From Parcubacteria group bacterium Licking1014_17 (lineage in GTDB: Bacteria; Patescibacteriota; Minisyncoccia; 2-02-FULL-40-12; IGHO2-01-FULL-4-A), in NCBI GenBank assembly GCA_007376485.1, contig VMGJ01000003.1, forward strand, positions 81,252-145,251: DNA of 64,000 bases. Reading direction: 5' to 3'. Shown one piece after another: positions 5,148-59,873 of the stretch. The position numbers were made by a program, and so were the translations under genes. The notes under the pieces were generated by a model. The model did not search any database, was not told the DNA's origin, and worked only from the letters and a program-made list of their open reading frames with translations. The first letter of the stretch is position 1. The number at the start of each line of letters is the position of its first letter.

Positions 5148-6094
5148 TCCTTGTTTAGATAATCTATAATTTCTTCAGCTATTTTCTTAGCTTCTTCAAG
5201 ACTTGTGGAATTACACGCGCCCACGCCTTCATGCCCTCCCCCGCCATATTTTTTCATCAGTAAGCCTATATCGGCGTTACCCTTCTTCTCAATCCACGCG
5301 TTTTTACTAGCCCATATCTTATAATACCCGGATTTGCCGCCGGTTAACCTCACGGCATAAAGGGCCTCTGGGTAAATATAATATGGCAGAGCGCTGGAAG
5401 ATTTAAAAGACCAGTCTAGAATTTCGGTATAAACAAGGTTGCCAATCAATTTACTGCTGTCGGCGTAATGTTTATTGCTTTTTTGGACTTCGATGAGAAC
5501 TTTTTCTATGTCGTTGTGATATTTTTCACTATTTACTATATCTTCGATCGGCCCAGAAGCAATTCTGGTAATTATATCGCTTCTCACAGATTCATATGTT
5601 TCACCGTCCAACACTTTAAAATTGTCCAAAAAGGAAGATAGCCTAAAAGCCGGCTCTTTGCACTCAACCGCCTGTTGGGGAGAGCTGAAAGCGGAATCAA
5701 TAATATCCGACCAGTGGGCGGTATCGGCAAAATATTCCGGCGGCTTGTAACCATGTTTTTCCTCAAGAAATTTAAGGACCATGCTGCAACTGGATTTAGC
5801 ATTGGGGTCATAAAAATGCCAGTCGTCGTTTCTATAATTTTTCTCGTCTTCGGGATTGGTGAAGGTGGTTGAATGATGGTCAAACCACATATCGGCGTCC
5901 TTTCGATAGCGAAGGTCAATAAAAATACACGGTTTTTTTACGTCAAAAGTGAACCACTTGGCAATCAGAGTCGGGCTATAATCCAGAGAATGAAATAAAC
6001 CGACGGAATCCCCTCTTTTTTTGAGAAAATCATACAAGACGGCGCCGGTCGTTATCCCGTCAAAATCGTCGTGATAATAAATACTGTAATCCAT
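5144..6094 (-). CDS. DHH/DHHA1-family phosphoesterase (NrnA-like oligoribonuclease / pAp phosphatase)
   Basis: Motifs HDDFDG, FDHH and the C-terminal GGGGHEG (the GGGH signature of DHHA1). Confidence 0.7.
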   Translation of the reverse strand: MDYSIYYHDDFDGITTGAVLYDFLKKRGDSVGLFHSLDYSPTLIAKWFTFDVKKPCIFIDLRYRKDADMWFDHHSTTFTNPEDEKNYRNDDWHFYDPNAKSSCSMVLKFLEEKHGYKPPEYFADTAHWSDIIDSAFSSPQQAVECKEPAFRLSSFLDNFKVLDGETYESVRSDIITRIASGPIEDIVNSEKYHNDIEKVLIEVQKSNKHYADSSKLIGNLVYTEILDWSFKSSSALPYYIYPEALYAVRLTGGKSGYYKIWASKNAWIEKKGNADIGLLMKKYGGGGHEGVGACNSTSLEEAKKIAEEIIDYLNKD

Positions 6095-7272
6095 TAATAA
6101 TATCTTAACGCTTCCAGGGCGGGCAGTTTTTCGCCGCCCAAGAAAATCAGCATTGCTCCTCCGCCGATTGAAACAAAACTGTATTTTTTCAGTAAGCCGA
6201 GTTTTGTAACTTCGCTGATTGTGTCTCCTCCGCCGATAATTGAATTTTTGGCGGCCGCCACAGCTTCCGCGATTTTCCGTGTCCCCTCCGCGAATGCCTC
6301 GGTCTCCGAAAGCCCCATCGGCCCGTTCCAGATAACCATTCCTGCTTTACCGATAAAATCTGCGTACTTCGCGGCGGTTTTCGTGCCAATGTCTAAAATC
6401 ATTTCCTCGCCCGCCACCTTGTCCGCGTCTTTTATTTCGGCTTTGGAAACTGCGAGCGTATCGGGAGCCGTTACCACGTCTTCGGGAATAACAACTTTAC
6501 TCATATCCAAACCCTCCAGTGAATTTATATCTTCCGCGTCAATTAAAGATTTCCCGACTTCCAGCCCTTTAAATTTTAGAAAATTATTAGCGAGCGCTCC
6601 ACCGATTAAAATCCGCTCGGCTTTATCTAGAAAATGTTTTACCACCGGCAGTTTGGTGGAAATTTTCGCTCCGCCGAGAACCAAAACCTTGCCTTCAGCC
6701 GGCGCCTGAATCGCCCGCGAGAGATTTTCTATTTCGTCCTTCATCAAAAATCCAGCGTAAGAATCAATATATTTTGTTATCGCCGAAACCGAAGCGTGCT
6801 TTCTGTGGGCGACGGCGAATGCGTCATTTACGTAAAAATCAAAGCCCTTCGGCTCACTTCGTTCGCTCAGGGCAGGCCCTTTGGCCAGTTGTTGGGCAAA
6901 GGCATCATCATTTTTTTCTTCGCCTTCATGTCTCCTGACGTTCTCCAATAAAACAAAATTGTGCTCATTTAGAGCTTCGACGACAGCAGGACCAACACAA
7001 TCAGAAACAAAAAATATTTCCTTGCCGAGAATTTCCGATATTTGACTTACAATCGGGCTGAAAGTTTCTATGTCAGTGATGTGGGATAAAAGCGCGACTT
7101 TCGCCCCGGCACCTAATAGATAATCTATTGTTTTCTGAACCGCCTGCACCCGATAGTCGCTTGAAATCCTGCCGTGTTCCACCGGTAAATTAAAATCCAC
7201 CCGAACGAGGATTTTTTTATTTGAAAGCTCCGACTGCGGCAGAGAGTCAATATATTTCATAGTTAAAATCAT
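6094..7272 (-). CDS. pgk: Phosphoglycerate kinase
   Basis: KKILVRVDFNLP N-terminus and a glycine-rich C-terminal domain. The real start is probably the Met at MKYIDS. Confidence 0.9.
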   Translation of the reverse strand: MILTMKYIDSLPQSELSNKKILVRVDFNLPVEHGRISSDYRVQAVQKTIDYLLGAGAKVALLSHITDIETFSPIVSQISEILGKEIFFVSDCVGPAVVEALNEHNFVLLENVRRHEGEEKNDDAFAQQLAKGPALSERSEPKGFDFYVNDAFAVAHRKHASVSAITKYIDSYAGFLMKDEIENLSRAIQAPAEGKVLVLGGAKISTKLPVVKHFLDKAERILIGGALANNFLKFKGLEVGKSLIDAEDINSLEGLDMSKVVIPEDVVTAPDTLAVSKAEIKDADKVAGEEMILDIGTKTAAKYADFIGKAGMVIWNGPMGLSETEAFAEGTRKIAEAVAAAKNSIIGGGDTISEVTKLGLLKKYSFVSIGGGAMLIFLGGEKLPALEALRYY

Positions 7273-8264
7273 AGCAGATTATTTGTATTAGTAATAATCT
7301 CCCTAATTTTGTAAGTATTCCCATGCTTCAATAGCCCAAGATATGAATTGATGGTCTCCGTTCTCGGATTTTCTCTGATTCTTTTCAGCATTCTTCTTTT
7401 TGTCGATGTTCTCAAAATTCTGTGGTCTGGAAAATTAACCCAGCCGAGAAAATCAACTCCTGAAGAAAGGGTTTTAACAAATATCTTCTGGGGATGCAAT
7501 CTTAAATCTAATTCTTGCTTTAAATATTCTCCAATCGGCTGAACAATTTGCTCAAGCCACAATCTATCCTCGGATAAAATCACAAAATCGTCGCAGTATC
7601 TGATGTAATGACGGATTTTTAGTTTGTGTTTAATAAATTGGTCAAATTTATTCATATAAATATTCACAAAAAGCTGCGATGTTAAATTGCCAAGCGGCAA
7701 GCCAATGTCTAAACGGCCCGAATTGAAACTGCCGACAACTTCTTTTAACAGCCAAATAACATTTTCGTCGGAAATATATCCTGAAATGATTTTAAGCAAA
7801 ATCGCATGGTTTATGTTGGCAAAGAATTTCCGGATGTCGCATTTCAAAATCCAGCAGGTTCTTGTATTGTTCCGGCTGACTTTACGCGCGAAATAACGAA
7901 AACGATTCAGAGCTTTGTGAGCGCCTTTATTTAACCGGCAGGAAAAAGAATCGGAAATAAATATTCTATCAAAAAATGGATATAGGATTTTATAAATCGC
8001 GTGGTGCAATAGACGATCTCTGACGCTTGCTTTGTGGATATTTCTCGGCTTCGGGTCGCAGATATTGAATGCCTCATAATTTCCGTGTTTGTATGTATGG
8101 TTTACTAAATCTCGGTGCAATTCCAAAATATTATCCATTAAATTAAACTGGAATTCCTGAACATCCCGCCTATGCCTTTTACCACGTAAAAATTCTTTCC
8201 ATGCTTCCAAAATATTCTCAATGCTGATAATATCTTCAAAACTATGAGCCAATTTGATTTTCAT
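7269..8264 (-). CDS. DGR reverse transcriptase (cassette 1)
   Basis: RT domain with YCDDF (the YxDD box) and LPLGNLTSQ, the [LIV]GxxxSQ motif that separates DGR RTs from group II intron RTs (QGxxxSP). There is an adjacent TR and an Avd-like gene. Confidence 0.85.
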   Translation of the reverse strand: MKIKLAHSFEDIISIENILEAWKEFLRGKRHRRDVQEFQFNLMDNILELHRDLVNHTYKHGNYEAFNICDPKPRNIHKASVRDRLLHHAIYKILYPFFDRIFISDSFSCRLNKGAHKALNRFRYFARKVSRNNTRTCWILKCDIRKFFANINHAILLKIISGYISDENVIWLLKEVVGSFNSGRLDIGLPLGNLTSQLFVNIYMNKFDQFIKHKLKIRHYIRYCDDFVILSEDRLWLEQIVQPIGEYLKQELDLRLHPQKIFVKTLSSGVDFLGWVNFPDHRILRTSTKRRMLKRIRENPRTETINSYLGLLKHGNTYKIREIITNTNNLL

Positions 8265-8648
8265 AAAAACAACCCTTTAAGCCCCCCCCCCAAGATCTTA
8301 CCCTTACTTCAAAAGATAAAAGATATGTATTTATTGTGGTATGAATACTATCAGGTATTACCCAAACCGCATAGATATACTCTCGGTCAAAGAATTGATT
8401 ATTTGCTGGTAGAAATCATAGAAGCAATAGCTACTGCCGCTTTTTTGATGCGTGAAGAAAAAATACCGTATGTTCGTTTGGCAGTCAGGAAAGTTGATGT
8501 TTTGAAAATACTCTTAATGATACTTTGGGAAACCAAATCTCTGGGCGATAAAAAATATATAGCCCTCTCATTAAGAATTGACGGGATAGGCAAAATGCTC
8601 GGCGGTTGGCATGGCCAGCTACAAAAACAAAACTCCCCTGCTAAATAG
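8244..8648 (+). CDS. avd: Avd-like accessory protein (four-helix-bundle / 23S-IVS protein family), divergent from the RT
   Basis: 134 aa carrying HRYTLGQRI...IGKMLGGW, characteristic of the PF05635-type bundle. It starts MSQFDFHKNNPLSPPP, with the PPP encoded by a C10 tract. Confidence 0.8.
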   Translation: MSQFDFHKNNPLSPPPKILPLLQKIKDMYLLWYEYYQVLPKPHRYTLGQRIDYLLVEIIEAIATAAFLMREEKIPYVRLAVRKVDVLKILLMILWETKSLGDKKYIALSLRIDGIGKMLGGWHGQLQKQNSPAK

Positions 8649-8668
8649 CCAGGAGAGAAATGAAGTAA

Positions 8669-8803
8669 TTTGCGACGGGTGAATACCCAGCGGTCGTTGC
8701 CATTCCAGAAGTTATCAGGGTTGCCGTTGTTACCGTTGAGCCACAGGTCATCGTCATTGCGTTCGACGTTGAACACCTTGAGGTTGCCGTCCGAGTCCGT
8801 AAT
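8669..8803 (-). repeat. DGR template repeat TR1
   Basis: 135 bp, identical in register to 9137-9271 except for at least 24 positions. Every one of those is T on the plus strand, that is A in the minus-strand template. In the VR frame it encodes AAC-rich NGNNGNPDNFWNGN. Confidence 0.85.
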
Positions 8804-9057
8804 ATGTACAAGATACCTCCCTTGTCACCACCCCTTGAATACTCTTGGGGTTGTATCGTATTCGGCATCGTAATGCCATAGTATCTTATACCAAGTAGCT
8901 TCATTTTTTGAAGTATCTATATACACCACTCTATCTGAAACCGTAATCGCAGATATTCTCGATGTATGGATACTGGGTTCGGTAGTTGGAAACCTTGGTC
9001 TCCATCATATTCACCTACTGCCGTTTCCATTTTACACGACAAATGCACAAAACAAAA

Positions 9058-9077
9058 CTCGTGCATTTCTGCACGAG
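9058..9077 (-). terminator. 8-bp GC-rich hairpin with a GAAA loop, about 60 nt 3' of VR1 and followed by TTTTGTTTTG. It is either the target-gene terminator or a DGR homing hairpin
   Basis: ctcgtgca-gaaa-tgcacgag on the minus strand. A GC-rich stretch lies between the VR end and the hairpin. Confidence 0.5.
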
Positions 9078-9133
9078 CGGAAGGGCCAAGGGGCCAAGAA
9101 CCAAACGAGGTTCAAGTCCCCAAGGTCAGAGGA

Positions 9134-9799
9134 CTACTTGCGACGGGCGAATACCCAGCGGACGCGGCCAAACCAGAAGACACCAGGGCGGCCGATGCTA
9201 CCGTCGAGCCACAGGTCATCGTCACGGCGTCCGACGTAGAACACCCCGAGGTAGCCGCCCGAGCCCGCAATCGGCTCCATAGCAATCGGGAGCCCCTCGC
9301 CCTTAGGCTGGTCTTTGTATTGCAAACGCAGCTGAGGACCGACTTCGTTGGGGCAGAGCTGGAGACCGAGACTAAGTGCCCGCTCGTAGATGTCCTTGCG
9401 GGTGGCACCGTCTTTGAAGCCAATCTCAGCGACACTGACGTTCACCAGTCCGATTGAGGTTTTCTTGGGGCTTACCTTGAAATCAGGTCCGCCGAGGGTA
9501 TAGTTGCCCCAGTCGCCGATGCGGAAGCCGCCGTTCTTGAGGGCTTCACGGAACTTGCAAGCGTCCGCAAGCCCAGTGCCCAACTTGACGGTCTTCCAGA
9601 TCGGAAAGTTAACCGCTCCGATAACCTGGGGACGCCCGCCATTCTTGAGGAAGGCGGTGAAGCGGCTACCGAACTCGGCGGATGAAAGGTTGATGACTTC
9701 GACCTGGAGCTTGTCTCCATCGAGCTCATCCCAGTTAATCTGGGTTGCGACTCGGGCCGAGATTTCGAGAGCTTGACCGCGTGATACGGCTTTACTCAT
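9134..9799 (-). CDS. DGR variable (target) protein 1. It is cytoplasmic, about 221 aa, with the VR at the C-terminus
   Basis: SD AAAGGAGAAA 7 nt before the ATG (MSKAVSRGQ). The C-terminus ...GRRDDDLWLDGSIGRPGVFWFGRVRWVFARRK is encoded by VR1. Confidence 0.8.
   Translation of the reverse strand: MSKAVSRGQALEISARVATQINWDELDGDKLQVEVINLSSAEFGSRFTAFLKNGGRPQVIGAVNFPIWKTVKLGTGLADACKFREALKNGGFRIGDWGNYTLGGPDFKVSPKKTSIGLVNVSVAEIGFKDGATRKDIYERALSLGLQLCPNEVGPQLRLQYKDQPKGEGLPIAMEPIAGSGGYLGVFYVGRRDDDLWLDGSIGRPGVFWFGRVRWVFARRK
9137..9271 (-). repeat. DGR variable repeat VR1
   Basis: See TR1. The VR runs through the stop codon of the target gene. Confidence 0.85.
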
Positions 9800-9925
9800 T
9801 GTCGTTTCTCCTTTTTCTGCCAGAGGGCTACTATCCGTAGTCATAGCCAGGAAATTCCGATAAATCAGGATCTCCTGGCTATGACTACAATCGCAAGAAG
9901 TATTAAAGAGCGACATTATGTTCTA

Positions 9926-9954
9926 ATGATACTCCGTTTATTTAGTTTTGTCAA
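9926..9954 (-). promoter_or_regulatory. Near-consensus sigma70 promoter for target gene 1 (TTGACA, 17 bp, TATCAT)
   Basis: Read on the minus strand upstream of the target. The 5'UTR also holds an 11-bp hairpin at 9842-9882. Confidence 0.5.
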
Positions 9955-9962
9955 CACACCAC

Positions 9963-9987
9963 AAAACCCTCATTCTATAAGGGTTTT
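9963..9987. terminator. Hairpin aaaaccct-cattctata-agggtttt, probably the terminator of the upstream dedA-GT2 unit. An identical copy lies at 36268-36292
   Basis: Stem flanked by T-runs, and the same sequence sits upstream of target gene 2. Confidence 0.4.
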
Positions 9988-10085
9988 TCATGTAAAACAA
10001 GCCATTGTACTTTGAGGGTTACTGAAGTTGTCGCCCCATCCTCATTAAAACTTCAGAGGGTAAAGCAGTATTTGTACAGTCCAGG

Positions 10086-10238
10086 CTGGAATGTCTTTTC
10101 GGCCGCTTAGAGGCTATGGATTGCTTGGTCGGCAATAGTATAATATCTGGCGTATAGCCAACTATTGCCGAATCCACAGCCTCTAGCGAGTGAGATATTC
10201 CGCCGGAGAATCTTGAACGTGCCGAAAAGACATTCCGG
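10086..10238 (+). ncRNA. Structured element copy B (three-way-junction family)
   Basis: The outer stem ctggaatgtcttttcggc / gccgaaaagacattccgg contains a T-G wobble that is only compatible on the plus strand. It has a long internal imperfect hairpin and a second small hairpin with loop cgccgg. Confidence 0.4.
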
Positions 10239-10275
10239 TCGGACGGGTAGCCCCGAAAAGCGCAATGGCGAGTTT

Positions 10276-10890
10276 TTATTTTTTACCCTTTTTTATATGC
10301 CTCCAAACATACCAAACCAAGCCGATGACGATTAGAGCAATAATTACATACTCAAACTTTTTGAAATACGGCGCCAGGAATTCCCAGTTATTGCCGGCTT
10401 TAAAACCTACGTAGGCCAGCCAGAGATTCCACAAGAATGAGCCCAAAATAGTAGGCAACAGAAAACGCCAGAACGGAATGCGCATGCTACCCAGAGCGAT
10501 ACCACTGACGGTTCTGATGCCAGGCAGAAGGCGCGAAACAAACGCCACCCAAAGCCCGTGCTTCGCCGCCCATTTGTCCACCTTTAAAATATCATCCGTA
10601 TGAATAAACAAAAAATGCCCGTGTTTTTCCACCAAAGGCCGCCCGCCATACCAGCCAAGAAGAAATATTAGCGAAGAGCCGAGTGTATTCGCCAACGTAG
10701 CCGCCAACATCACCAGCCAAAAATTAAATCTCCCCGTTGCGGCCAAAAATCCCGAAAACGGCAGGACAATTTCGGAAGGAATCGGAATCAGGGCGCTTTC
10801 CAAAAATTGGGTAACAAAAATGCCGGCGTAGCCGAAATGGGAAATAACTCCCAACGCCCAACTGGCAAGTGATCCTAAAATGCCGCCCAT
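10276..10890 (-). CDS. DedA/SNARE-associated family membrane protein
   Basis: 204 aa, multi-TM, carrying the FLESALIPIPSEIVLPFSGFLA motif region. Confidence 0.8.
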   Translation of the reverse strand: MGGILGSLASWALGVISHFGYAGIFVTQFLESALIPIPSEIVLPFSGFLAATGRFNFWLVMLAATLANTLGSSLIFLLGWYGGRPLVEKHGHFLFIHTDDILKVDKWAAKHGLWVAFVSRLLPGIRTVSGIALGSMRIPFWRFLLPTILGSFLWNLWLAYVGFKAGNNWEFLAPYFKKFEYVIIALIVIGLVWYVWRHIKKGKK

Positions 10891-11612
10891 CAGGATTTAT
10901 TATACACTTTTTTACAGAGATTGAGGCGGATTTCCAAAATTTCAAAAAGCATTTTTAACATCCCGCTGAATTTCACGTGGCTCCTTTCATAATTCCGCCA
11001 GACAATTGGGGCTTCTTTTATTTTAAATCCCAGCCGGTGGGCAATCGCCAGCGCCTCAACATCAAACGCCCAGCGGGAAATAGTGAGCCGACCAAAAATC
11101 TCCGCGGCGGCTTTAGCGGTAAATAACTTGAAACCGGCTTGCGAATCCTCAACGTCCACCGGAACAATCGTCCGCACGACAAAACGGAAAATCGCGCCCA
11201 GAAAATCGCGGTGCCACGGCTGATGAATGGCAATTTCGGCGCCCTTAATCCGCCTTGAGCCGATAATTACGTCGTAGCCATCTTTGACCCACGGCAAAAA
11301 ATTTTCCACCTGCTCCACAGTGGTGGAGTTATCGGCATCCATAAATATGCGCAAATCCCCATTTGCCTTAAGTATACCATCGCGCACGGCTCCGCCTTTG
11401 CCCTGATTGATTTTATTATCCAGCAAAATTATTTGCGGAAATTGGACCTGTGTTTTTCTCACCGCATCAGCCGTGCCGTCTTTTGAGCCATCATTAACAA
11501 CAATCACTTCGTAATCATACGGCTGTCTTGAAAGATAATCACAAACCAAGCGCAGGGTTTTTTCTATGCGTTTTTCTTCGTTATAGGCAGGAATGATGAC
11601 GGATAAGTGCAT
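10890..11612 (-). CDS. Glycosyltransferase family 2 (polyprenol-phosphate glycosyltransferase, DPM1-like)
   Basis: VIIPAYNEE...VIVVNDGSKDGT...DADNS motifs. Confidence 0.8.
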   Translation of the reverse strand: MHLSVIIPAYNEEKRIEKTLRLVCDYLSRQPYDYEVIVVNDGSKDGTADAVRKTQVQFPQIILLDNKINQGKGGAVRDGILKANGDLRIFMDADNSTTVEQVENFLPWVKDGYDVIIGSRRIKGAEIAIHQPWHRDFLGAIFRFVVRTIVPVDVEDSQAGFKLFTAKAAAEIFGRLTISRWAFDVEALAIAHRLGFKIKEAPIVWRNYERSHVKFSGMLKMLFEILEIRLNLCKKVYNKS

Positions 11613-32467: not shown

Positions 32468-33571
32468 CTATTTCTCTTCTGTCTTTTCCGTTTCTGCCAC
32501 CGCTTTTTTGATGCCGACTATGATATCTTTCTCCACTTTTGGATTATCTTTCAGGAATTGGCGGGCGCCGTCTATGCCCTGCCCGAGTTTTTCTTTGTTG
32601 TAGATAAACCAGCTCCCGGACTTTTCAACCACGTTGAAGGCTACGCCGGTATTCACCACGTCGGCCTGTTTTGAAATGCCCTCGTTGTATAAAATATCAA
32701 ACTCGGCGGTTCTGAACGGCGCGGCGACTTTATTTTTCACGACTTTTACTTTCACCCTGTTGCCGATGATTTTTTCTTTTGACTGGATTTGAGCCGAACG
32801 GCGGATTTCAATTCTGACGGACGAATAAAACTTCAGCGCCAAGCCGCCGGTGGTGGTTTCGGGATTGCCAAACATTATGCCGATTTTTAGGCGGATTTGG
32901 TTTATGAAAACAACAGTGGTGTTTGTCTTGGCAATAATGGCGGTGAGTTTCCGCAAAGCGTGGGACATCAGCCGCGCCTGCAAGCCCATGTGCTGCTGGT
33001 CCATTTCGCCTTCAATTTCGGCGCGGGGTGTCAGGGCGGCGACGGAATCAATGACAACCAAACTGACTCCGCCGGAGCGGACAAGGGTTTCGACAATTTC
33101 CAGCCCTTGCTCTCCGGTGTCCGGCTGGGAAATAAGCAAATCCCCGATTTTCACTCCGATTTTTTTGGCGTATTCCGGGTCAAGGGCGTGTTCGGCGTCA
33201 ACGTAAGCGGCAACTCCGCCTTGTTTTTGGGCCTCGGCGACAAGATGCAACGCCAAAGTCGTTTTGCCGGAACTTTCCGGTCCGTAGATTTCAATGACCC
33301 TTCCTCTCGGCACTCCGCCGACGCCGAGCGCGAGGTCAAGCGAAATTGAGCCTGTCGGTATTACGTCAACGTCAACTTTCTTGGCATCGCCAAGCTTCAT
33401 TATTGACCCCTCGCCGTATTTTTCCTGAATCTCCCGAACGGCAAGGTCAATACTTCGACTACGCTCAGTACTTGCGGTACTTCGGCTGTGCTCAGTACCT
33501 GCGGCTCCCTTATTTATCACAGTTTCGCTCTTCGCTTTGACTTCTTCTTTTTTTGTTTTTTCTTTAGGCAT
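32468..33571 (-). CDS. recA: Recombinase RecA (with a low-complexity N-terminal extension, or an over-called start)
   Basis: GPESSGKTT Walker A and conserved RecA L1/L2 regions. Confidence 0.95.
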
Positions 33572-33591
33572 ATATTACTTTTATCTTATCA

Positions 33592-34590
33592 CTATATCAT
33601 CGGATTCCCCAAATTGGCAATAATTCCCCTAAGTTTGAAAGTATTCCCATGTTTCAATAGCCCCAAATATGAATTGACAGTTTCTGTTCTCGGATTTGCC
33701 TTGATTCTTTTCAATATTCTTCTTTTTGTTGACGTCCTCAAAATCCTGTGATTTGGGAAAGTAATCCAGCCGAGAAAATCAATGCCCGAAGAAAGAGTCT
33801 TAATAAATATCTTTTGGGGATGCAATCTTAAATTTAATTTTTGTTCCAGATATTCGCTAACTGGTTGGATAATTTGTTCAAGCCATGGCTTATTTTCGGA
33901 CAAAATCACAAAATCATCGCAATATCTTATGTAATAGCGAATTTTCAGTTTGTGTTTAATAAATTGGTCAAATTCATTCATATAGACATTCACCAAAAGC
34001 TGCGAAGTCAGATTGCCGAGCGGCAGACCGATGCCGAAGTAGCCCGAACTGAAACTGCCAATAACTTCCTTTAACAACCAAATAATGTTTTCATCGGGAA
34101 TATATCTTGAAATGATTTTCAATAAAATCGTATGGTTAATATTGGCAAAGAATCTTCGGATGTCGCATTTCAAAACCCAGCAGGTTCTTGTGTTGTTCCG
34201 GCTGACTTTACGCGCAAAATAACGAAAACGATTTATAGCTTTGTGTGTGCCTTTATTTAATCGGCAGGAAAATGAATCGGAAATAAACGTTCTATTAAAA
34301 AATGGATACAATATCCGGTAAACCGCGTGGTGCAACAGCCGGTCACTGACGCTTGCCTTGTGAATATTCCTCGGTTTCGGGTCGCAGATATTGAATGCTT
34401 GATAATCGCCATGCCTATATGTATGATTTACCAAATCTCGGTGTAATTCCAAGATATTGTCCATTAAATTAAACTGGAATTCCTGAACGTCCCGCCTGTG
34501 TCTTTTGCCCCGCAGAAATTCTTTCCATGCTTCCAAAATGTTCTCAATACTGATAATATCTTCAAAATTATGAGCCAATTTGATTTTCAT
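33592..34590 (-). CDS. DGR reverse transcriptase (cassette 2). The ORF track extends it to 34767, but the homologous start is MKIKLAH at 34590
   Basis: About 88 percent aa identity to RT1, with the same YCDDF and LGNLTSQ motifs. Confidence 0.85.
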   Translation of the reverse strand: MKIKLAHNFEDIISIENILEAWKEFLRGKRHRRDVQEFQFNLMDNILELHRDLVNHTYRHGDYQAFNICDPKPRNIHKASVSDRLLHHAVYRILYPFFNRTFISDSFSCRLNKGTHKAINRFRYFARKVSRNNTRTCWVLKCDIRRFFANINHTILLKIISRYIPDENIIWLLKEVIGSFSSGYFGIGLPLGNLTSQLLVNVYMNEFDQFIKHKLKIRYYIRYCDDFVILSENKPWLEQIIQPVSEYLEQKLNLRLHPQKIFIKTLSSGIDFLGWITFPNHRILRTSTKRRILKRIKANPRTETVNSYLGLLKHGNTFKLRGIIANLGNPMI

Positions 34591-34982
34591 AAAAATAGCC
34601 CTATAAGCCCCCCCCCAGGGTTTCGTTGCCGATATTACAAAGGTTGGTTTCGGCATACAAGCTGTGGCATGAACATCTGTCGCATTTTCCCAAAACCTCA
34701 CGATATACGCTCGGCGGGAAAATTGACAGCTATTTTGTAGACGCCGTCGAAGCGATTCACACCGCAAGTTATCTTGGCAAATCAGAGAAACTCCCTTGGA
34801 TCAGGCGCGCGATAACAAAACTTGATGATCTGAAATTCTTTTTGCAAATCGCTTGGGAACTCAAGGTATTGGATAACAAAAAATACATAGCACTTTCCGA
34901 GCCGCTGGCCGAAATTGGCCGAATGCTGGGCGGATGGATGCGGCAAACGGAGTCGGCAAAAACAAAACCGAACCTGTTATAG
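34498..34982 (+). CDS. avd: Avd-like accessory gene (cassette 2). It appears frameshifted at a C9 tract. The N-terminus MSQFDFHKNSPISPPP (frame A) and the body from 34626 (frame -1) are rejoined by one extra C
   Basis: The body carries SRYTLGGKI...IGRMLGGW. The poly-C is at 34608-34616. Confidence 0.7.
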
Positions 34983-35002
34983 GTTCGGAGAAACTTTGCT
35001 TA

Positions 35003-35126
35003 CTTGCGGCGAGCGAGGAACCGGCAGTCGCCGTCCCACTTGTTACCGAGGTAATTGAGGTTCGCGTTCCGCTCGTTGGCGTTCCTGTAGACGTACACGA
35101 CGTTCCGGTTGCCGTTGCGGTCCTGC
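35003..35126 (-). repeat. DGR template repeat TR2
   Basis: At least 17 mismatches to 35478-35602, all at plus-strand T (minus-strand A) positions of the TR. Confidence 0.85.
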
Positions 35127-35384
35127 TGTGTGCACGGTACCATCTATGCCACTATCCTTTGAATACTCTCGGGACTGAATCGTATTTGGGAGCATAACTC
35201 CGCCAGTACCGTACACCAAGTAGCTTTGTTTTTTGAGATACTGTGAAAATCACTGGCCGGAGGCGTACCCACGGCCACTCCGTTTTACGCAGTTCTGGAA
35301 TTCGGCCGTTTGCAGTCGTAACCGCAAACATATCAGCCTATTATCCGTGATTTACTATACTCACTATTTTCAAAAATGAAAGAG

Positions 35385-35420
35385 CGCCTCGTCCGGAAGA
35401 CCCGAACGAGGCGCAAGAGT
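35385..35420 (-). terminator. Hairpin plus T-tract about 65 nt downstream of VR2 (the target 2 terminator, or a homing hairpin)
   Basis: gcgcctcgt...acgaggcgc stem followed by TCTTTCATTTTTG on the minus strand. Confidence 0.45.
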
Positions 35421-35468: not shown

Positions 35469-36113
35469 CTACTTCTGCTTGCGGCGAGCGAGGAACCGGC
35501 AGTCGCCGTCCCACTCGCCACCGAGGTAATCGAGGGACGCGCACCGCTCGTCGGCGTGCCTGCAGACGAACACGACGCACCGGCTGCCGTGGCGGTCCTG
35601 CCAGTGCTGGCCGATGGCCGGGATCGGGAACTCCCGCTGGAGCTCCGGCTTCTCGGCGCCGACGGTCAAGTCCTCGTAGGCGTCGGCGGGCTCGAGGTCG
35701 AGCTTCGCCAGCTCGGTGAGCACCTGCTCGTCGCTCATGTCTCGCCCGAAGTGGACGAGGACGAGGTCGCTCTTGACCCTGCCCTTGAGGCGCGGCGGGA
35801 AGTTCTTGGCGTTGACGTTGCCGTTCTTCCAGTCGTACTTCCCACGCTTGAGCAGATCGGCTATGTCCTCGTCGTAGTCGATGACGTGGCAACCGAGCTT
35901 GGTGATCGTGGGGTCAGGGTAGATCGGGGCGAGGCCGAGGACCTTCCGCAGGGCGTTGCGCTCGGGCAACGTTCCCTGCTTCGAAGCCTCAATCACGTCG
36001 GCGACGATTCCGCTATCGAGCAAGTCCGCCTGGAACTTCTCCACAGTCAGTCCCTTGTCGTTGGCAAGCCGGACAACTTCATTTCCTTGGGCGAGCGTCA
36101 CGTTGTTGGCCAT
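35469..36113 (-). CDS. DGR variable (target) protein 2. It is cytoplasmic and 214 aa. The whole gene is markedly GC-rich relative to its neighbours
   Basis: SD GAAAGGAGGG before the ATG. The C-terminus ...CRHADERCASLDYLGGEWDGDCRFLARRKQK is encoded by VR2. Confidence 0.8.
   Translation of the reverse strand: MANNVTLAQGNEVVRLANDKGLTVEKFQADLLDSGIVADVIEASKQGTLPERNALRKVLGLAPIYPDPTITKLGCHVIDYDEDIADLLKRGKYDWKNGNVNAKNFPPRLKGRVKSDLVLVHFGRDMSDEQVLTELAKLDLEPADAYEDLTVGAEKPELQREFPIPAIGQHWQDRHGSRCVVFVCRHADERCASLDYLGGEWDGDCRFLARRKQK
35478..35602 (-). repeat. DGR variable repeat VR2
   Basis: See TR2. Confidence 0.85.
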
Positions 36114-36382
36114 GACACCCTCCTTTCCTTTGTGGCTATGGAACCACCATAAGCTCCGACGGAATGTCGGTACTCACAGCGTTCCGGTTGCTGATTTTGC
36201 AGGTAAAATCAAGGTACTATGATACCCTATATTATACTAAACTTTACGACAAAAAGCAAGGACACAAAACCCCTCATTCTATAAGGGTTTTTTAATATAA
36301 AGCGAGTCATTATGCTTTGAGGGCTCAAAAAGCACAATAGCGAGACCGCCTAAATTTTGCTTCACAAAACTTGAGCGGGCTT

Positions 36383-36530
36383 GCCAATATGCTTTTTGGG
36401 GCTGTTGAGATTGCCGCTGGTACGGTTTTGTCAATGGCTGAACGAAGTGAACGCCTTGACAAACAGCGGTAATCTCACCAGATGAAATTTTCTCGCTGGG
36501 GAAATTTCAGTCCCCAAAAAGCATATTGGC
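36383..36530 (+). ncRNA. Structured element copy C (three-way-junction family)
   Basis: P1 is gccaatatgctttttgggg / ccccaaaaagcatattggc. P2 is tgagattgccgctg / cagcggtaatctca with a G-T wobble on the plus strand. P3 is tgaaattttc / gaaatttca with the conserved loop tcgctgg. Stems covary with copy A. Confidence 0.4.
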
Positions 36531-36536
36531 AAGTAT

Positions 36537-48546: not shown

Positions 48547-48983
48547 ATGTTTTTTATTACACGGCAAACAATGTCGCCTTAATGGCAACAGAATAAATTG
48601 GACACTCAACCTTGTAAGGAAATACAGACGATCTATTAGTAACTCTTGGCTCAAAGCCTTGCGGCTCTTACACCTGAGTCCTATCAACGTGGTAGTCTTC
48701 CACGGATCTGCGAAGCCTAATCTTGGGGCCCGTTTCGCGCTTATATGCTTTCAGCGCTTATCGGAACCGAACATAGCTGCCCAGCGCTGCCCTTGGCAGG
48801 ACAACTGGTAGACCAGAGGTTCGTTCATCCCGGTCCTCTCGTACTAGGGACAACCCCCCTCAAGCTTCTAACGCCCACACCAGATAAGGACCAACCTGTC
48901 TCACGACGGTTTGAACCCAGCTCGCGTACCCTTTTAATTGGCGAACAGCCAAACCCTTGGCAGCTTCTTCACCGCCAGGATAG

Positions 48984-49862
48984 GGCGCACATTTATCTTC
49001 TATTACTAGAAGTGCAGACTATATCTTCTCCCGTCTTCCAATCGAAAGGTGGGAGTTGGCGTATTATAGCAGTTAAAAAACTGCTATCCTCTCGCAATAG
49101 CGAGAAAGTCGTTACGGGGTAAGAGAAACTTTATACAATAGACTATCTAAAATATACGGCTTGATGATTTCACAAAACTTTTGCGATGATCTTTCCGGAA
49201 TATATATGTTGAATGTTTTACCCTTTTTATGGATTGCCGCTACGATTCCGAAATTCATCTTCAGACAATCCACTAGCATTTGCTGTTCTTGATACGAAAA
49301 TATATCCGTATTAAGTCTCAGCGCATTACAATCGTTCCGTTTATATCCGTCGTCCATTACCCAAACCGCCAGCGATAATGGTTCAATAAGAATTTCTTGA
49401 ATATTATCAGGAACTATTTTGATTCTATTCTTGTAAAACATATCCCGCCATTCCTGAAATATTCCGTTTGAACATGTCGAGAAATGTAACCGCCTGTATT
49501 CTTTATTCTCTTTCTTGTGGAACGAAGTGATAACTCTGGGCTTACTTGGCACAAGGTTTTTAAATACTTCATATTTCCATAATACATACTCCTTCTGTGC
49601 CATGCCGTGGTCTACTTTTAGACGCACGCCCTTGCCATTTTGCTCCAGATGCCCGTCGCCGAGCATTGTTCCAATTAATATCGCTTTTTGTGTTGCCGTT
49701 AATAGCATACTGTATAAAGCCTCTCCTACTTCCCACGATATTATCCTATCATAGCTGGGTAGCCTCTAATAGGACTCCATCGTTATTAGCCAACGTTGCA
49801 AGTTTATTTCTTAAAAGACACAAACTTGCCAACTCGAATTACTTCGAGTACGGCCCGTTTTG
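48984..49862 (-). mobile_element. Intron-like insertion (putative group I intron) in 23S domain V. It interrupts GATGTCGGCTCA | (T)ATCCTGG and carries a LAGLIDADG gene
   Basis: The exon sequence is contiguous with E. coli-like 23S on both sides, and the boundaries were located by eye. Confidence 0.6.
49112..49708 (-). CDS. LAGLIDADG homing endonuclease (two-motif, monomeric type)
   Basis: [11 protein letters not shown] and [10 protein letters not shown] motifs. Confidence 0.85.
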
Positions 49863-50172
49863 TTGAGCCGACATCGAGGTGCCGAACACTGCCGTCGCTA
49901 TGGACGCTCGGGCAGTACCAGCCTGTTATCCCCGGAGTAGCTTTTATCTGATGATCTTCCCCGTTCCTACGAACAAGGGTCGGTTCACTAACACCTGCTT
50001 TCGCATCTGCTTGACACATCCGTCTCACAGTTAAGCCGGCTTATGCGTTTGCACTATCGCTCCGATTTCCATCCGGAGCTAGCCGACCTTCGTACGCCTC
50101 CGTTACTCTTTAGGAGGCAACAGCCCCAGTTAAACTGCCCGCCAGACACTGTCTTGATGGCACCCTAGAAGG

Positions 50173-50474
50173 GGACGAGTAAACTCGTCCGAGCATCCTG
50201 TAATATTCGTTCAAATATCACAGGATGTTATAGATTATGAGCATTAAAGAATCTAATCTCATTTTTTTGATCGCTGATACAGGTCAGAAAGAGTTTTTCA
50301 TCCCCAAAACAAAAGGGTTGTAAACTCCTGTCGCCTATGTTTTTCAACACCGCATTGGCGACATGTTTCTCTAGATCCGAACTTTCAAAATCAAACTTTA
50401 TCTGCTGTGTTCGGACTTCTGGCCCGCCTTCACATTTATTAAAGTGAAGTTTCAGAAGTATCATTTTATTTCCT
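50173..50474 (-). other. About 300-nt insertion in the terminal loop of a 23S domain-V helix. The arms are ggtggcaccctggaagg and ccttctagggtgcc. It contains an SD-led ORF plus two 3' hairpins
   Basis: The helix arms are perfectly complementary and flank the insert, and the equivalent E. coli helix is a short hairpin. Confidence 0.5.
50228..50464 (-). CDS. Small ORF of 78 aa from the SD-proximal ATG, embedded in the 23S helix-loop insertion
   Basis: GGAAGGAGGAAATAAA-ATG. The ORF ends just before two stable hairpins. No recognisable domain. Confidence 0.4.
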   Translation of the reverse strand: MILLKLHFNKCEGGPEVRTQQIKFDFESSDLEKHVANAVLKNIGDRSLQPFCFGDEKLFLTCISDQKNEIRFFNAHNL

Positions 50475-50770
50475 CCTTCCAGGGTGCCACCAGTTAGAAT
50501 TACAAATGACAAAGATGGGTGTTTCATTGGCGGATCCACGCCTCCCGAAAGAGGCGCTTCAAATCCTCCCCACTACGCTACGCATTGCCGCTCGTAACCC
50601 AATATCAAGCTACAGTAAAGCTTCCGGGGTCTTTCCGTCTTGGTGCGGGTAGTCAGCATCTTTACTGACATTGCATTTTCACCGGGCTAGTGGCTGAGAC
50701 AGTCCCCCAGTCGTTACGCTATTCATGCGCGTGGGAACTTACCCCACAAGGTATTTCGCTACCTTTGGAC

Positions 50771-52554: not shown

Positions 52555-52596
<42 letters not shown>

Positions 52597-53227: not shown

Positions 53228-53270
<43 letters not shown>

Positions 53271-55282: not shown

Positions 55283-57337
55283 TCAAATCAAAAATCTCGC
55301 TATCAGCAGCGCCACGATGTTTGCTACCTTAATCATCGGATTGATCGCCGGTCCCGCCGTGTCTTTGTAGGGGTCGCCGACTGTGTCGCCTGTCACCGCC
55401 GCCTGGTGGGCGGGGGATTTTTTGCCGCCGAAGTTCCCTTCCTCAATATATTTCTTGGCGTTGTCCCAGGCGGCGCCGCCGGAAGTCATTGATATTGCCA
55501 TAAACAAACCGGTGATAATTACGCCAACCAACAGACCACCCAACGCTTGTGGTCCCAGCAGAAAGCCGACAGCGATGGGAATTACGATTGGAATCAAGGC
55601 GGGGATTATCATTTCTTTCAAAGCCGCCCTGGTAACAATATCTACCGCCGCCGCGTAATCGGGTTTTCCCGTCCCCTCCATTATGCCGGCGATTTCCCTG
55701 AACTGCCGGCGCACTTCTTCAACTATCGCGCTACCGGCTTTGCCCACCGCCTTCATCGCCATCGAGCCGAAAAGATAAGGCATCATGCCGCCGATTAATA
55801 AACCGATTAAAACCGAAGGGTTAGTCAAATCAAAACTGATGGGCGCTCCGGCGCCGGCAAATTCTTGGGTGTAAGCCGAAAACAAAACCAGAGCCGCCAG
55901 TCCCGCCGAGCCGATAGCATAACCCTTGGTTACCGCCTTGGTAGTATTACCCACAGCGTCCAACGGATCCGTCGCCTGCCTTACTTCTTCCGGCAGGTTA
56001 GCCATCTCGGCGATGCCGCCGGCGTTATCCGTAATGGGACCGAAAGCGTCAATTGCCAAAACTATCGCCGCCAGCGAAAGCATGCTCAAAGTAGCCAGCG
56101 CCACTCCGTACACGCCGACAAAAATATATGAGCCGAGTATCGCCGCGCAAATCACCACCACCGGCCAGACCGTTGACCGCATGGAAACCGCCAGCCCGGC
56201 GATGATATTTGTGCCGTGCCCGGTCTTGGATGCTTCGGCAATCCCCCGCACCGGTGAGAATTTTTTTGAAGTGTAATAATCCGTAATCCAGAAAATCAAG
56301 CCGGTAACCGCCAGTCCTATTATCAGGGCCAGAAATATTCTATAGCCGGCGATTTCGCCCAGCACCGGTTTCCAGACCAACGTCACGTAAAAAGAAGCGA
56401 CAGCCAGTATCGCTGTAAGAATCAGTCCCTTGTACATTGAACCCATAATACCCCCGTTCGGCCCATTCGATGGACTCAGGGCAGGCAGGCTCGGGGCAAG
56501 CACCTTGGGACCCAATTTTACAACCAGCGAACCTACAATTGACGCCAGCACGCCGATAGCGCCGATAAAAAGCGGAAAGGTAATTATATTCGCGATTGAA
56601 GAATAAAGTAGATTGCCCAGAAGCATTACCGAAATCGTAGAGACCAGATAAGTTTCAAAGACATCCGCCGCCATGCCTGCTGTGTCGCCGACGTTGTCGC
56701 CTACGTTGTCAGCAATGACCGCCGGATTGCGCGGGTCGTCTTCCGGAATTCCGGCCTCAACTTTGCCGACCAAATCCGCGCCGACATCCGCGCCCTTCGT
56801 GTAAATCCCCCCGCCAAGGCGGGCAAAAACCGAAATCAGCGAACCGCCAAAGCCCAAACCAATCAAGGCGGTTACGTCTTTAGTGAACCAATAAAATAAA
56901 GTCAGAACCAGAAGCCCGAGGCCGACCACGAAAAAGCCGGTTACCGCCCCGCCGCGGAAAGCCAGATTGAAAGCGTTGACGATGCCCGATTTTGCCGCTT
57001 CCGCTACCCGCACGTTCGCCCGCACCGCCACAAACATCCCGATATAGCCGGCGAGCGCCGAAGCCGCCGCGCCCACAATAAACCCAATTGCCGTGGTTAC
57101 GCCCAGAAATATATACAGGATTATCGCTACCAAAATGCCGACGACGACTACGACCTTATACTGCCTTTTCAGATAGGCATTCGCTCCTTCGCGGATTGCC
57201 TGCGAGATGGACTTCATCTTTTCATCCCCCTGCGGTTGTTTCAAAACGTTAAGTATCAAAACCGCCCCGTAAACCAGCGCCGCCAGAGCCGACGCCAAAG
57301 AAAAAATTAAAATAGTCATATGGATTAAAACTAACAA
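55283..57337 (-). CDS. hppA: Membrane-bound proton/sodium-translocating pyrophosphatase
   Basis: [14 protein letters not shown] and other V-PPase signature segments, about 16 TM. Confidence 0.9.
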
Positions 57338-58356
57338 ATAGATATCTTTTTTTCCAGTTTTGACTCCATCGCTTTCTGAATATTATAACCGCAACAATGT
57401 TTCAAAACTCCCAGATAAGATTGTAAGTTATCGGTGTTAACTTTTTTCAAAATTCTTCTTCTTGTTTTTGTTCTCAAATTTACGCAGTATGGTCTGACAA
57501 TATAACCCAGAAAATCAATTCCCTGCCGGTATTTTCTAATGATAATTTTTTGCGGATGAAGATTTAATTGTAATATATTATTCAGATAATTGCCGACTAA
57601 AAACGATAATTCGTATAAATAATTTTTATCTTCGCTTAAAATAATAAAATCATCGCAATATCGGAGATAAAATTTCAATTTCAGATGGTGTTTTACAAAC
57701 TCATCCAACTCATTCAAGTATATATTCGCGAATAGCTGGCTTGTCACGTTGCCGAGTGGTAATCCTTTGTCAATATCTTTTTTAAAACTACTAATAATAA
57801 CTCCCAACAGCCAGAGTACGTTTTCGCCGTGAATCTTTCTTTTTATTAGACCAACTAGAATTTCGTGATCTATCGAATCAAAAAATCTCTTGACATCGCA
57901 TTTCAAAGCAAAAATATTCCTGCTGTTGTTTCTGCTCAATTTGCGGCAAAAAGATTTTAATCTCCTGATTCCTCTATACGTGCCTTTTCCCAGCCGACAA
58001 GAATAAGAATCAAAAATAAACCCAGCATCAAAAATTGGATAAAGAATCCTGAAAACGGCGTGATGCAGGATTCTATCTCTAACTGTGGCCTTATGAATGT
58101 GCCGAAGCTTTGGGTCAGTGATGCAAAAAGATTCGTATGGTGAGTGCTGATAAATCTTGGCTGATAGTTGATTGTGTAACCCAAATAGGTTATCTTCCAG
58201 ATTAAATTCGAATTCTAAAATGTCGCGTCTCTTCTTCTTTCCACGCCTAAATTCTTTCCACGCTAAAAACAAATTTTCCAAACTGATTATTTCTCCAAAT
58301 AAATCATGACTCTTATAAGCCCCCCCCCAAAAAAAAACTCCATACCTTTGATTCAT
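57331..58356 (-). CDS. DGR reverse transcriptase (cassette 3). The start is ambiguous, and the ORF as drawn reads through a T9/G9 homopolymer
   Basis: RYCDDFIIL and LPLGNVTSQ motifs. Confidence 0.8.
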
Positions 58357-58671
58357 AGTATTTGCGATTTATACAGGAAAATATATCTTGTCGGACTTAA
58401 AATCCCCAAAAGAGACAGGCTGGGAATTTGCGCAAAAATTGAATCTATATGCCTTGATTTAATAAACTTACTAATTTCAGCCGCTTTTGAATCTAAAGAT
58501 AGGAAATTGTCTTTTCTTACTATTGCTCGTGTTAAAACAGAAATTCTAAAAAGATTGGTCCGGCTTGCGCATGAAATTGACGTAATCAAATCAGTTAATT
58601 ATATAGAATTGGAATCGCAATTGCAGGAAATATCAAAAATGATAAATGGCTGGATCAAATATTTAAAGTGA
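58306..58671 (+). CDS. avd: Avd-like accessory protein (cassette 3)
   Basis: 121 aa, [10 protein letters not shown] encoded by a C9A9 tract, with a C-terminal ...EISKMINGWIKYLK. Confidence 0.8.
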   Translation: MTLISPPPKKNSIPLIHSICDLYRKIYLVGLKIPKRDRLGICAKIESICLDLINLLISAAFESKDRKLSFLTIARVKTEILKRLVRLAHEIDVIKSVNYIELESQLQEISKMINGWIKYLK

Positions 58672-58700: not shown

Positions 58701-58824
58701 AAACTACCTGACGGGCACGGAGGTTGTCGTTGGCATTGCCTGTGTTGTTCCAGTTCACGTTGACCTTGTCATCGCTGTTCCGATACATGTTTGGCACGTC
58801 GCCATCCTTGTTGCGAGAACCCGC
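58701..58824 (-). repeat. DGR template repeat TR3
   Basis: 124 bp at a constant offset of 410 from VR3. At least 20 mismatches, all at plus-strand T positions of the TR. It is AAC-rich in the VR frame. Confidence 0.85.
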
Positions 58825-59102: not shown

Positions 59103-59873
59103 CTACAGAGAAACTACCTGACGGGCACGGAGGCGGCCGCTGGCAAGGCCTGTGAGGTCCCAGCTCACGTAGACCCTGACATCGCTGCCCCGATACATGA
59201 CAGGCACGACGCCATCCTTGTGGCGAGAACCCGCACATAAAGTTACGTTCTTATTGTCGAGATGGCCACTGGTCTTCCAATTGAACCATCGCCCAAGAAG
59301 AAGCCTTTCAAGAAGATTTATACTATTGATTTTCTTCTCCGCGACCCAACTGGCGGAGAGATTCTTGAGCTCTTCGTCAGCCTCTACGCGGTCACGCGTC
59401 CAGATAACGTAGGGCTTGCCGACGGGCATCCTGACGTTTTTTGTGACGACTTCATCCAAATTAGCATCACAAAATTTCCATTTCTCCGGGAACGAATCGA
59501 AAACCATCTGCATTGTCACACCGGGAACAACCAGCACACCCCAATTAAAACCGGGGGTTACTGGGGGCAGGGGAATTTGCGATGTTTTTCGGATTCTGAT
59601 GTTAAGCGCCTCCTTATAGAAATCCGCCCAGTCCTTCAGGAAGGATTTAACATCCAGCCCCGAGGTGGCATAGGTGATGCCTCCGTTGTCCTGATTAGTG
59701 GCTGTAGTTACGTCACCAACCAGTACGATTTCTGCCTCGCCGCGAAGGGCTTTGAGATGTTGACTGGCAATATTGCCACCACTCAGCTTTTTCACGTCTT
59801 CTGGCGTCCACCCCCCACGCTCAAAAGCGTGATCCAGCTCGGCTGCCTGTCGACTTGTCATAATTGATCCCAT
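59103..59873 (-). CDS. DGR variable (target) protein 3. It is cytoplasmic and 256 aa
   Basis: SD AGGAGA before the ATG. The C-terminus ...GSRHKDGVVPVMYRGSDVRVYVSWDLTGLASGRLRARQVVSL is encoded by VR3. Confidence 0.75.
   Translation of the reverse strand: MGSIMTSRQAAELDHAFERGGWTPEDVKKLSGGNIASQHLKALRGEAEIVLVGDVTTATNQDNGGITYATSGLDVKSFLKDWADFYKEALNIRIRKTSQIPLPPVTPGFNWGVLVVPGVTMQMVFDSFPEKWKFCDANLDEVVTKNVRMPVGKPYVIWTRDRVEADEELKNLSASWVAEKKINSINLLERLLLGRWFNWKTSGHLDNKNVTLCAGSRHKDGVVPVMYRGSDVRVYVSWDLTGLASGRLRARQVVSL
59111..59234 (-). repeat. DGR variable repeat VR3
   Basis: See TR3. Confidence 0.85.

Follow-up and report, generated by a model that had tools for sequence, protein, structure and literature searches.

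Three diversity-generating retroelement (DGR) cassettes were examined within one 64-kb window (the whole stretch of DNA analyzed, from the 163,553-bp contig VMGJ01000003.1) of the metagenome-assembled genome (MAG) of Parcubacteria group bacterium Licking1014_17. Each cassette ends in a reverse transcriptase (RT) gene that stops a few bases before a housekeeping gene: pgk for cassette 1, recA for cassette 2 and hppA for cassette 3. The explanation we favor, with a probability of about 0.72, is that the cassettes are lineage-specific insertions into short spacers between core genes, with RT open reading frames (ORFs) that end in promoter-like -10 boxes, and that their tight fit reflects compaction and not targeting.

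By this account, the cassettes would have landed in the tiny spacers of DedA-[tpiA]-pgk, ftsK-recA and RmuC-hppA, directly upstream of the promoter of the downstream core gene, and insertion would have left an extended -10 motif (TGnTAnnnT) upstream of that gene, 7-19 nt before its ATG. The RT ORF would then read into the AT-rich -10 box and terminate at a stop codon embedded there, so that each RT ends a few bases from a housekeeping start. No terminator-like hairpin was detected after the RT. The housekeeping genes would use the junction promoters, with read-through possibly adding to their expression.

Junctions and empty sites in related genomes

Every RT and housekeeping gene considered here is carried on the minus strand, and thus all on one strand, as the first-pass annotation of the window had stated. 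The genes that form the three junctions are as follows.

7269..8264, minus strand: RT1, 331 aa, TSC91568; RVT_1 match, identical to the deposited protein
6094..7272, minus strand: pgk, probable start 7260 from homologue N-termini; Pfam PGK E=2e-111
33592..34590, minus strand: RT2, ATG at 34590; the ORF extends to a TTG at 34767
32468..33571, minus strand: recA, Pfam RecA E=3e-135; 100% match to the deposited 367-aa protein
57331..58356, minus strand: RT3, 341 aa; RVT_1 match, 51% identical to RT1
55283..57319, minus strand: hppA, 678 aa, TSC91620; Pfam H_PPase E=2e-268

The RT1 and pgk ORFs overlap as ATGA (stop codon TGA at 7271-7269, first pgk ATG at 7272-7270), and the abutment first described between position 7269 and position 7272 is real for that first ATG. 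The N-termini of 17 pgk homologues (MK/MIK-x-I/L-D/E) match the second ATG of the window at 7260 (MKYIDSL), however, and from this homology-supported start the gap after the RT1 stop is 8 nt. The RT2 stop (TAG, 33594-33592) is separated from the recA ATG at 33571 by 20 nt, in agreement with the approximately 21 bp first reported. The RT3 stop (TAG, 57333-57331) lies 11 nt from the hppA ATG at 57319, a start backed by the deposited annotation and by homologues; the overlap first proposed with an hppA start at 57337 was withdrawn, as that position is a TTG extension of the ORF.

Empty sites, which the first-pass annotation had suggested locating by synteny in relatives, were found for all three cassettes as tpiA-pgk, ftsK-recA and RmuC-hppA. 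The closest metagenome pgk relatives are 50-54% identical, and the comparisons included no near-isogenic cassette-free genome. In related metagenome contigs the pgk block runs secY ... glycosyltransferase-galT-DedA-tpiA-pgk-DHH-(GIY-YIG)-RNase H-sugar transferase, and tpiA directly precedes pgk in ~30 syntenic metagenome loci, mostly with a stop/start overlap of ATGA. Neither tpiA nor galT was found anywhere in the window, although the same block flanks are present, and cassette 1 sits exactly at the tpiA position; the part of the window concerned is 6094-10275 and 10276-11612. For recA, ftsK is immediately upstream in three genomes (RecA 82-85% identical) with gaps of 127, 1 and 44 bp (1 bp in L162), and the surrounding synteny matches the window, with rpoB/C on one side and S18-SSB-S6-EF-Tu on the other. 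For hppA, RmuC is upstream in four contigs (HppA 73-77% identical), two with gaps of 146 and 5 bp (5 bp in L166) and two with small extra ORFs between the genes; two of the hppA contigs continue with the MscS-like gene and 23S rRNA of the window. Since related genomes supply empty sites for all three, the cassettes are lineage-specific insertions into operon-like pairs. The synteny supports their description as discrete insertions into short spacers of conserved co-directional core-gene pairs.

Target-site duplications and terminal inverted repeats were sought by aligning left against right flanks, which gave weak similarities only, and no recombinase, transposase or integrase gene was found in the cassettes. 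The weak similarity at cassette 2, TTGCCAAT...TTTGGGGA on both sides, is an imperfect direct repeat on the minus strand (33613-33635 in the RT2 tail and 36510-36534 in the left arm, in a palindromic element after ftsK).

Promoter-like motifs at the RT stop codons

All three RT stop codons fall within an extended -10 motif (TGnTAnnnT) located 7-19 nt before the housekeeping ATG (TGA in TATGAT, TAG in TATAGT and TAG in TAGTTT).

7276-7268, minus strand: cassette 1 motif TGCTATGAT; holds the RT1 stop and the first pgk ATG and ends 7 nt before the ATG at 7260
33591..33620, minus strand: cassette 2 motif TTGCCA-18-TG-A-TATAGT, with TGATATAGT at 33599-33591; TAG in the -10 hexamer, 19 nt before the recA ATG
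57328..57357, minus strand: cassette 3 motif CTGGAA-18-TG-T-TAGTTT, with TGTTAGTTT at 57336-57328; encodes the last 9 RT3 codons and the stop, 8 nt before the ATG at 57319

In a promoter scan the cassette 2 junction matched at 10/12 positions with the TG extension and was the best promoter-like site of its region; it also had the top promoter score among RT 3' ends (11). The hppA element is kept in two cassette-free genomes (L165 and L166) as CTGGAA/CTGGCA-18-TGCTAGAGT-7-ATG, within either the spacer or the 3' end of RmuC. As these -35 and -10 elements occur in empty sites, the last nine RT3 codons and stop would be ancestral hppA promoter DNA. The match of the RT3 3' end to the empty sites is restricted to those nine codons, from ACTGGAA onward. 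An RmuC origin of the last ~20 RT3 codons was considered and rejected, the IQK... tail being conserved within the RT family; RT tails after the G.LKH motif measure 17, 18 and 21 aa here, against a family range of 10-24 aa.

A junction promoter brought in by the cassette was likewise rejected for hppA, since empty sites also carry the motif. It is unlikely at pgk and recA, where nucleotide homology between cassettes 1 and 2 ends before the -10 boxes (at 7287 in cassette 1, 18-21 nt short of the RT stop codons). Upstream of pgk, boxes TGCTATAAT or TGTTATAAT are present 7-11 nt before the ATG in three contigs in which pgk is uncoupled from tpiA (L084, L085 and L090); the box TGCTATAAT, from L084 and L085, resembles the window's own. 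No extended -10 was found before pgk in the tpiA-coupled relatives.

Across the fetched Patescibacteria loci (1357 genes), -10 boxes are enriched at a distance of 6 nt from the ATG, as would be expected of leaderless mRNAs. In tight co-directional pairs (401 in all) a TAnnnT hexamer overlaps the stop of the upstream gene in 39.9% of cases, versus 28.1% at convergent ends (p=3e-4), and it is present at the stop of 14/25 RT genes with tight neighbors versus 14/47 others. RT 3' ends are slightly more promoter-like where a tight co-directional neighbor follows (p=0.019). No terminator-like hairpin was found between the RT and the next gene at any of the three junctions.

Taken from motif position and conservation, these data indicate that pgk, recA and hppA probably keep and use their own junction promoters. 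We infer that the mRNAs of pgk and hppA have little or no leader, and that the RTs contribute little by read-through. The first-pass annotation had proposed that the downstream genes are transcribed through, or from within, the retroelement. One part of this stands, in that any such promoter is physically inside the last RT codons and no terminator hairpin intervenes; the other part is weakened, as the junction motifs are apparently independent promoters. Such promoters at the RT-gene junction, which that annotation had itself named as evidence that would speak against it, thus appear to exist, with an extended -10 at every RT stop and the hppA motif retained in two cassette-free genomes.

Compaction, targeting and other explanations

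Gap lengths were compared with a background from a mechanical gene model of the window, comprising 41 co-directional adjacent pairs. The median gap was 14 nt and 54% of gaps were 20 nt or less, so that three of three tight RT junctions would arise with p ~0.13-0.16. A second sample was centered on the RTs and consisted of 80 loci with related RTs (L001-L080; RT identity 47-70%) from species-representative genomes; all 80 of these nearest relatives are Patescibacteria-type MAGs. Neighbor orientation could be scored in 72 of these loci. The next gene was co-directional in 46/72 (64%) versus a background of 66%, and convergent in 26/72 (36%). Co-directional RT-to-next-gene gaps had a median of 27 nt versus a background of 64.5 nt (one-sided p=0.047). 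Twenty downstream genes, of which 19 were tight co-directional neighbors, were scanned with Pfam. They belong to unrelated families (Mur ligase, MurB, UDG, PGI, UvrC, PilC, SpoU, VKOR, NuoB, four aminoacyl-tRNA synthetases of His/Pro-type, Leu and Ala specificity, class-V aminotransferase and peptidases), and 2 of the 20 had no Pfam match.

The close spacing is mostly a consequence of genome compaction, with no particular gene as a target. The view that the arrangement is a consistent integration or retention pattern and not chance, put forward in the first-pass annotation, is not supported: small gaps are the norm in the window, orientation is at background and the downstream genes are diverse. 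A site-specific mobile element would occupy the same target across genomes, and here the neighbors are diverse and 26/72 of them convergent; it would also be recognized by a recombinase, terminal repeats or a target-site duplication, and the cassettes showed none of these.

Several observations weigh against the insertion-and-compaction account. The hppA motif is not present in a further empty site (L164), and the empty sites offer no clear equivalent of the recA promoter. Genome-wide, promoter-like counts are no higher than the shuffled expectation, the case for promoter function being one of motif position and conservation; the junction motifs were partly recognized after the fact, and TAGTTT and TATGAT are imperfect -10 boxes. 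As no terminator follows the RTs, read-through may add to the expression of pgk, recA and hppA. An extended -10 at 3/3 junctions, against 4.2% of tight pairs, is more regular than compaction predicts, and DGR remnants of another RT lineage at the pgk junction in three related contigs hint at something beyond chance, a residual signal in favor of the first-pass view.

Chimeric joins made during assembly at the repeated RT genes could set RTs beside unrelated genes, and the source is a MAG in which RT1 and RT2 are 85% identical. We consider this explanation to have almost no probability. Both flanks of every cassette are each other's syntenic neighbors in independent genomes, which excludes a chimera because the flanks of each cassette normally adjoin elsewhere; an identity of 85% is too low for assembly collapse, and the cassettes are complete and internally coherent. 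An operon-capture explanation deserves more weight, though we regard it as unlikely. It holds that pgk, recA and hppA lost their promoters when their operons were split and now depend on read-through from a promoter of the RT or of the template repeat (TR) RNA, with the corollary that loss of a cassette would silence an essential gene, stabilizing the DGR. The ancestral pairs are indeed operon-like (tpiA-pgk as ATGA, 1 bp between ftsK and recA in L162 and 5 bp between RmuC and hppA in L166), all three cassettes are co-oriented with their flanks, none of the RTs is followed by a terminator-like hairpin and the RT-to-next-gene gaps of the family are short (p ~0.047). Yet extended -10 motifs are present at all three junctions, and the one at hppA, being conserved in empty sites, is older than the insertion. 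Terminator-like hairpins after the variable repeat (VR) and the TR would block transcription from further upstream, the 36% of related RTs that face a convergent neighbor show that co-transcription is not a family property, and co-orientation of 3/3 cassettes has p ~0.24.

It has also to be considered whether these are preferred or long-retained sites, that is, whether DGRs of the clade repeatedly occupy and turn over at core junctions, especially upstream of pgk, owing to a recombination hot spot or to ancient residence with local rearrangement. In three contigs that are among the closest pgk relatives (L084, L085 and L090; pgk 49-54% identical), tpiA and pgk are separated by an opposite-strand insert of 1.1-1.6 kb. 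The protein encoded by the insert matches, at its 3' end, the VR and TR of RT3-like loci (L057, L071, L074 and L080); the L090 insert also includes an 85-aa RT fragment. The orphan variable-protein genes concerned are these.

L084:2656-3276, opposite strand: orphan variable-protein gene between tpiA and pgk
L085:1579-2571, opposite strand: orphan variable-protein gene between tpiA and pgk
L090:787-1964, opposite strand: orphan variable-protein gene between tpiA and pgk

A search for TR repeats in L084, L085, L090 and L094 found none, and the genes of the first three would therefore be orphan or remnant targets. In L094 an RT 68-82% identical to RT1 lies 3.6 kb upstream in the same syntenic block; an RT in L045 is convergent with recA, 5 bp beyond the recA stop; RT3-like loci L055, L068 and L077 have hppA 1.4-4.6 kb away; and the extended -10 before pgk is common to the window and L084/L085. 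Against this, pgk was met in 1, recA in 2 and hppA in 3 cases versus ~0.85 expected per single-copy gene in ~760 kb of flanks, which is not significant. Orientation and exact junction vary between genomes, empty sites are clean in the closest relatives for recA and hppA, and target-site duplications, terminal inverted repeats and a recombinase gene were not found in the searches described above. We give preferred sites a low probability. A related proposal, also with a low probability, is that junctions of split operons stay open as docking sites at which RT lineages turn over, while the downstream gene gains or keeps a -10 that overlaps the RT stop. It accounts for the RT3-type remnants in L084/L085/L090 and the RT1-type cassette that displaced tpiA here, and also for the similar pgk boxes (TGCTATAAT and TGCTATGAT) and for an extended -10 at 3/3 junctions versus 4%. 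If it were true, DGR insertion would count among the forces that split operons and create promoters in ultra-small genomes.

Cassette organization, structured RNAs and known systems

All three cassettes are genuine DGRs. The RTs match Pfam RVT_1 (E=1e-18 to 1e-23) and show the LGNxxSQ motif (GLPLGNLTSQ), and their 80 nearest relatives sit in DGR-type loci of Patescibacteria that all carry avd and TR/VR-like repeats. Mismatches between TR and VR fall at TR adenines in 24/24 (cassette 1), 16/16 (cassette 2) and 20/20 (cassette 3) positions, a total of 60/60, as A-to-N changes read on the minus strand; this divergence would indicate past mutagenic activity only. The VRs end 4-9 nt from the stops of their target genes. 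Pfam identified bAvd (PF22296) in avd1 and avd2, and avd3 was found by tblastn with avd1. The cassettes run in the order leader with a promoter-like site, target with VR, hairpin, noncoding sequence, TR, divergent avd and RT, and contain no genes other than target, avd and RT. The leaders extend 359 (cassette 1), 423 (cassette 2) and 177 nt (cassette 3) after the upstream stop, with hairpins and a promoter-like site before the target.

9917..10275, minus strand: cassette 1 5' leader; palindromic element ~10085-10280 directly after the DedA stop, hairpin 9962-9984
9954-9926, minus strand: predicted promoter-like TTGACA-17-TATCAT in the cassette 1 leader
9134..9916, minus strand: cassette 1 target (variable-protein) gene, from the TR/VR repeat; VR 9138-9271; no domain in a Pfam scan
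8808..9034, minus strand: structured RNA element directly upstream of TR1, preceded by a -10-like box at 9034-9029
8670..8803, minus strand: TR1, from the TR/VR repeat comparison
8244..8648, plus strand: avd1 (bAvd-like), PF22296 E=1.2e-12; divergent from RT1
36114..36536, minus strand: cassette 2 5' leader; palindromic element ~36375-36540 after the ftsK stop, TATAAT box
36263-36323, minus strand: 61-nt segment with a hairpin in the cassette 2 leader, shared with cassette 1
35469..36113, minus strand: cassette 2 target gene; VR 35478-35601, post-VR hairpin 35384-35414
35003..35126, minus strand: TR2, followed by a terminator-like hairpin (34968-34988) coinciding with the avd2 3' end
34626..34982, plus strand: avd2, Pfam bAvd E=1.9e-13
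59103..59873, minus strand: cassette 3 target gene; VR 59111-59234
58701..58824, minus strand: TR3, followed by a 12-bp hairpin (58670-58697) at the avd3 3' end
58306..58671, plus strand: avd3, tblastn with avd1 E=1.7e-9; divergent arrangement

The avd gene is on the strand opposite to RT, TR and target, and divergent from the RT, in 76/76 related loci with an avd match. In the related loci its start diverges from or overlaps the RT start, with a median start-to-start distance of ~ -2 nt. The post-TR hairpin on the minus strand (34968-34988 and 58670-58697, and in relatives) coincides with the avd stop and is often flanked by A and T runs; in many relatives a conserved stretch, ACTCTyTTCATTTCTCTCC, precedes it. 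The arrangement suggests a discrete TR RNA ending at a bidirectional terminator and not a TR-RT co-transcript.

RT1 and RT2 are 84% identical in amino acid sequence and 85% identical in DNA over 7287-8290 versus 33613-34616, and leader segment 9960-10018 of cassette 1 is 85% identical to 36263-36323 of cassette 2 (61 nt). The avd proteins of the two cassettes are 48% identical, and their TRs and targets are unrelated. RT1 and RT2 are close paralogues (by intragenomic duplication or gene conversion), with RT3 a separate lineage. The mosaic of cassettes 1 and 2 is better explained by swapping of modules or by gene conversion than by a simple duplication.

A noncoding domain of ~220 nt directly upstream of the TR is 70-84% identical in nucleotide sequence across >35 Patescibacteria DGR loci, with no more than 60-70% identity among their RTs; a conserved box resembling TGnTAnAAT lies before it. 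Copies were located in the window at 8808-9034 and, in weaker form, at ~35127-35370 (both minus strand), and in relatives at, for example, L024:331-550, L017:1549-1734 and L042:5250-5467. In a 22-sequence alignment, 44/51 predicted pairs showed compensatory changes, and 93.9% of cells were paired versus 40-47% in slid controls, a value reached by 0/500 shuffles. A search of the cassettes, including this domain, against Rfam (gathering threshold and E<=1; RT motifs in Rfam included) returned nothing relevant. It probably corresponds to the 5' domain of the template RNA of the DGR.

Palindromic elements of 140-190 nt occur on the minus strand at 36375-36540, 10085-10280 and 1290-1430, directly after the stops of ftsK, DedA and a sugar transferase, and another is present in the ftsK-recA spacer of L161. 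They have a long outer stem and a common inner architecture (RNAfold -66 to -87 kcal/mol); between copies 36393-36519 and 1300-1417 the identity is 71%, and their outer stems differ in sequence while staying complementary. An Rfam search with these elements gave no match. They could be complex terminators, 3'-untranslated-region RNAs or repeats resembling miniature inverted-repeat transposable elements.

Elsewhere in the window are a ribosomal-protein cluster (EF-Tu, S10, L3, L4, SecY), rpoB/rpoC, RNase P RNA and 5S rRNA. No 16S rRNA or tRNA gene was found in the 64 kb. The 23S rRNA gene (48616-53900, minus strand) spans 5.3 kb versus a 2.9-kb model and therefore carries large insertions, which are known in rRNA genes of the candidate phyla radiation (CPR). 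The ORFs called within this gene are probably either spurious or encoded by introns.

DGR clade 2 of Roux et al. 2021 (PMC8144416) comprises chromosomal DGRs of Patescibacteria/CPR, which are cellular and are described as mostly vertically inherited, and the window cassettes belong to this Patescibacteria-restricted clade. They share with its members a target with C-terminal VR, a TR, avd and RT, adenine-specific mutagenesis, targets without recognizable domains and a cellular, not phage-borne, location; they differ in the presence of three cassettes within 64 kb, two of them with near-identical RTs and unrelated target, TR and avd modules. No published account of CPR DGR insertion junctions or empty sites was found in the literature accessible to us.

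The DGR of Bordetella phage BPP-1 is laid out as mtd-VR, avd, TR and brt. Adenine-specific transfer from TR to VR, an Avd-family accessory protein and a hairpin downstream of VR are common to both systems. In contrast to BPP-1, where avd is co-oriented and the DGR is a phage tail-fiber module, the cassettes described here have avd on the opposite strand, a ~220-nt covarying RNA domain before the TR and a chromosomal position between housekeeping genes. Promoters within the 3' end of an upstream gene, and leaderless mRNAs, occur in compact bacterial genomes; the junctions resemble these in having a -10 box 6-8 nt before the ATG and over the stop codon of the upstream ORF, and differ in that this ORF is a retroelement RT whose last codons would come from flanking promoter DNA. 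Tn7 inserts at attTn7, downstream of glmS. As with Tn7, the module lies directly beside a conserved housekeeping gene that is left intact, whereas the cassettes have no transposase or integrase, defined ends or target duplication, and the neighboring gene differs between genomes.

Base-level junctions and matching empty sites are now defined for all three cassettes, and the apparent targeting rule becomes mostly ordinary, a matter of DGRs in tiny spacers of conserved pairs in a compact CPR genome. The covarying RNA upstream of the TR is the most noteworthy by-product and is more interesting than the junction finding itself. The results raise the questions of how the cassettes move or duplicate, why cassette 1 is at the tpiA position and what role the RNA upstream of the TR has. 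Should the junction motifs prove to be real promoters, they would show how a streamlined genome can accommodate a retroelement of 2.5-3 kb within an operon without silencing an essential gene.

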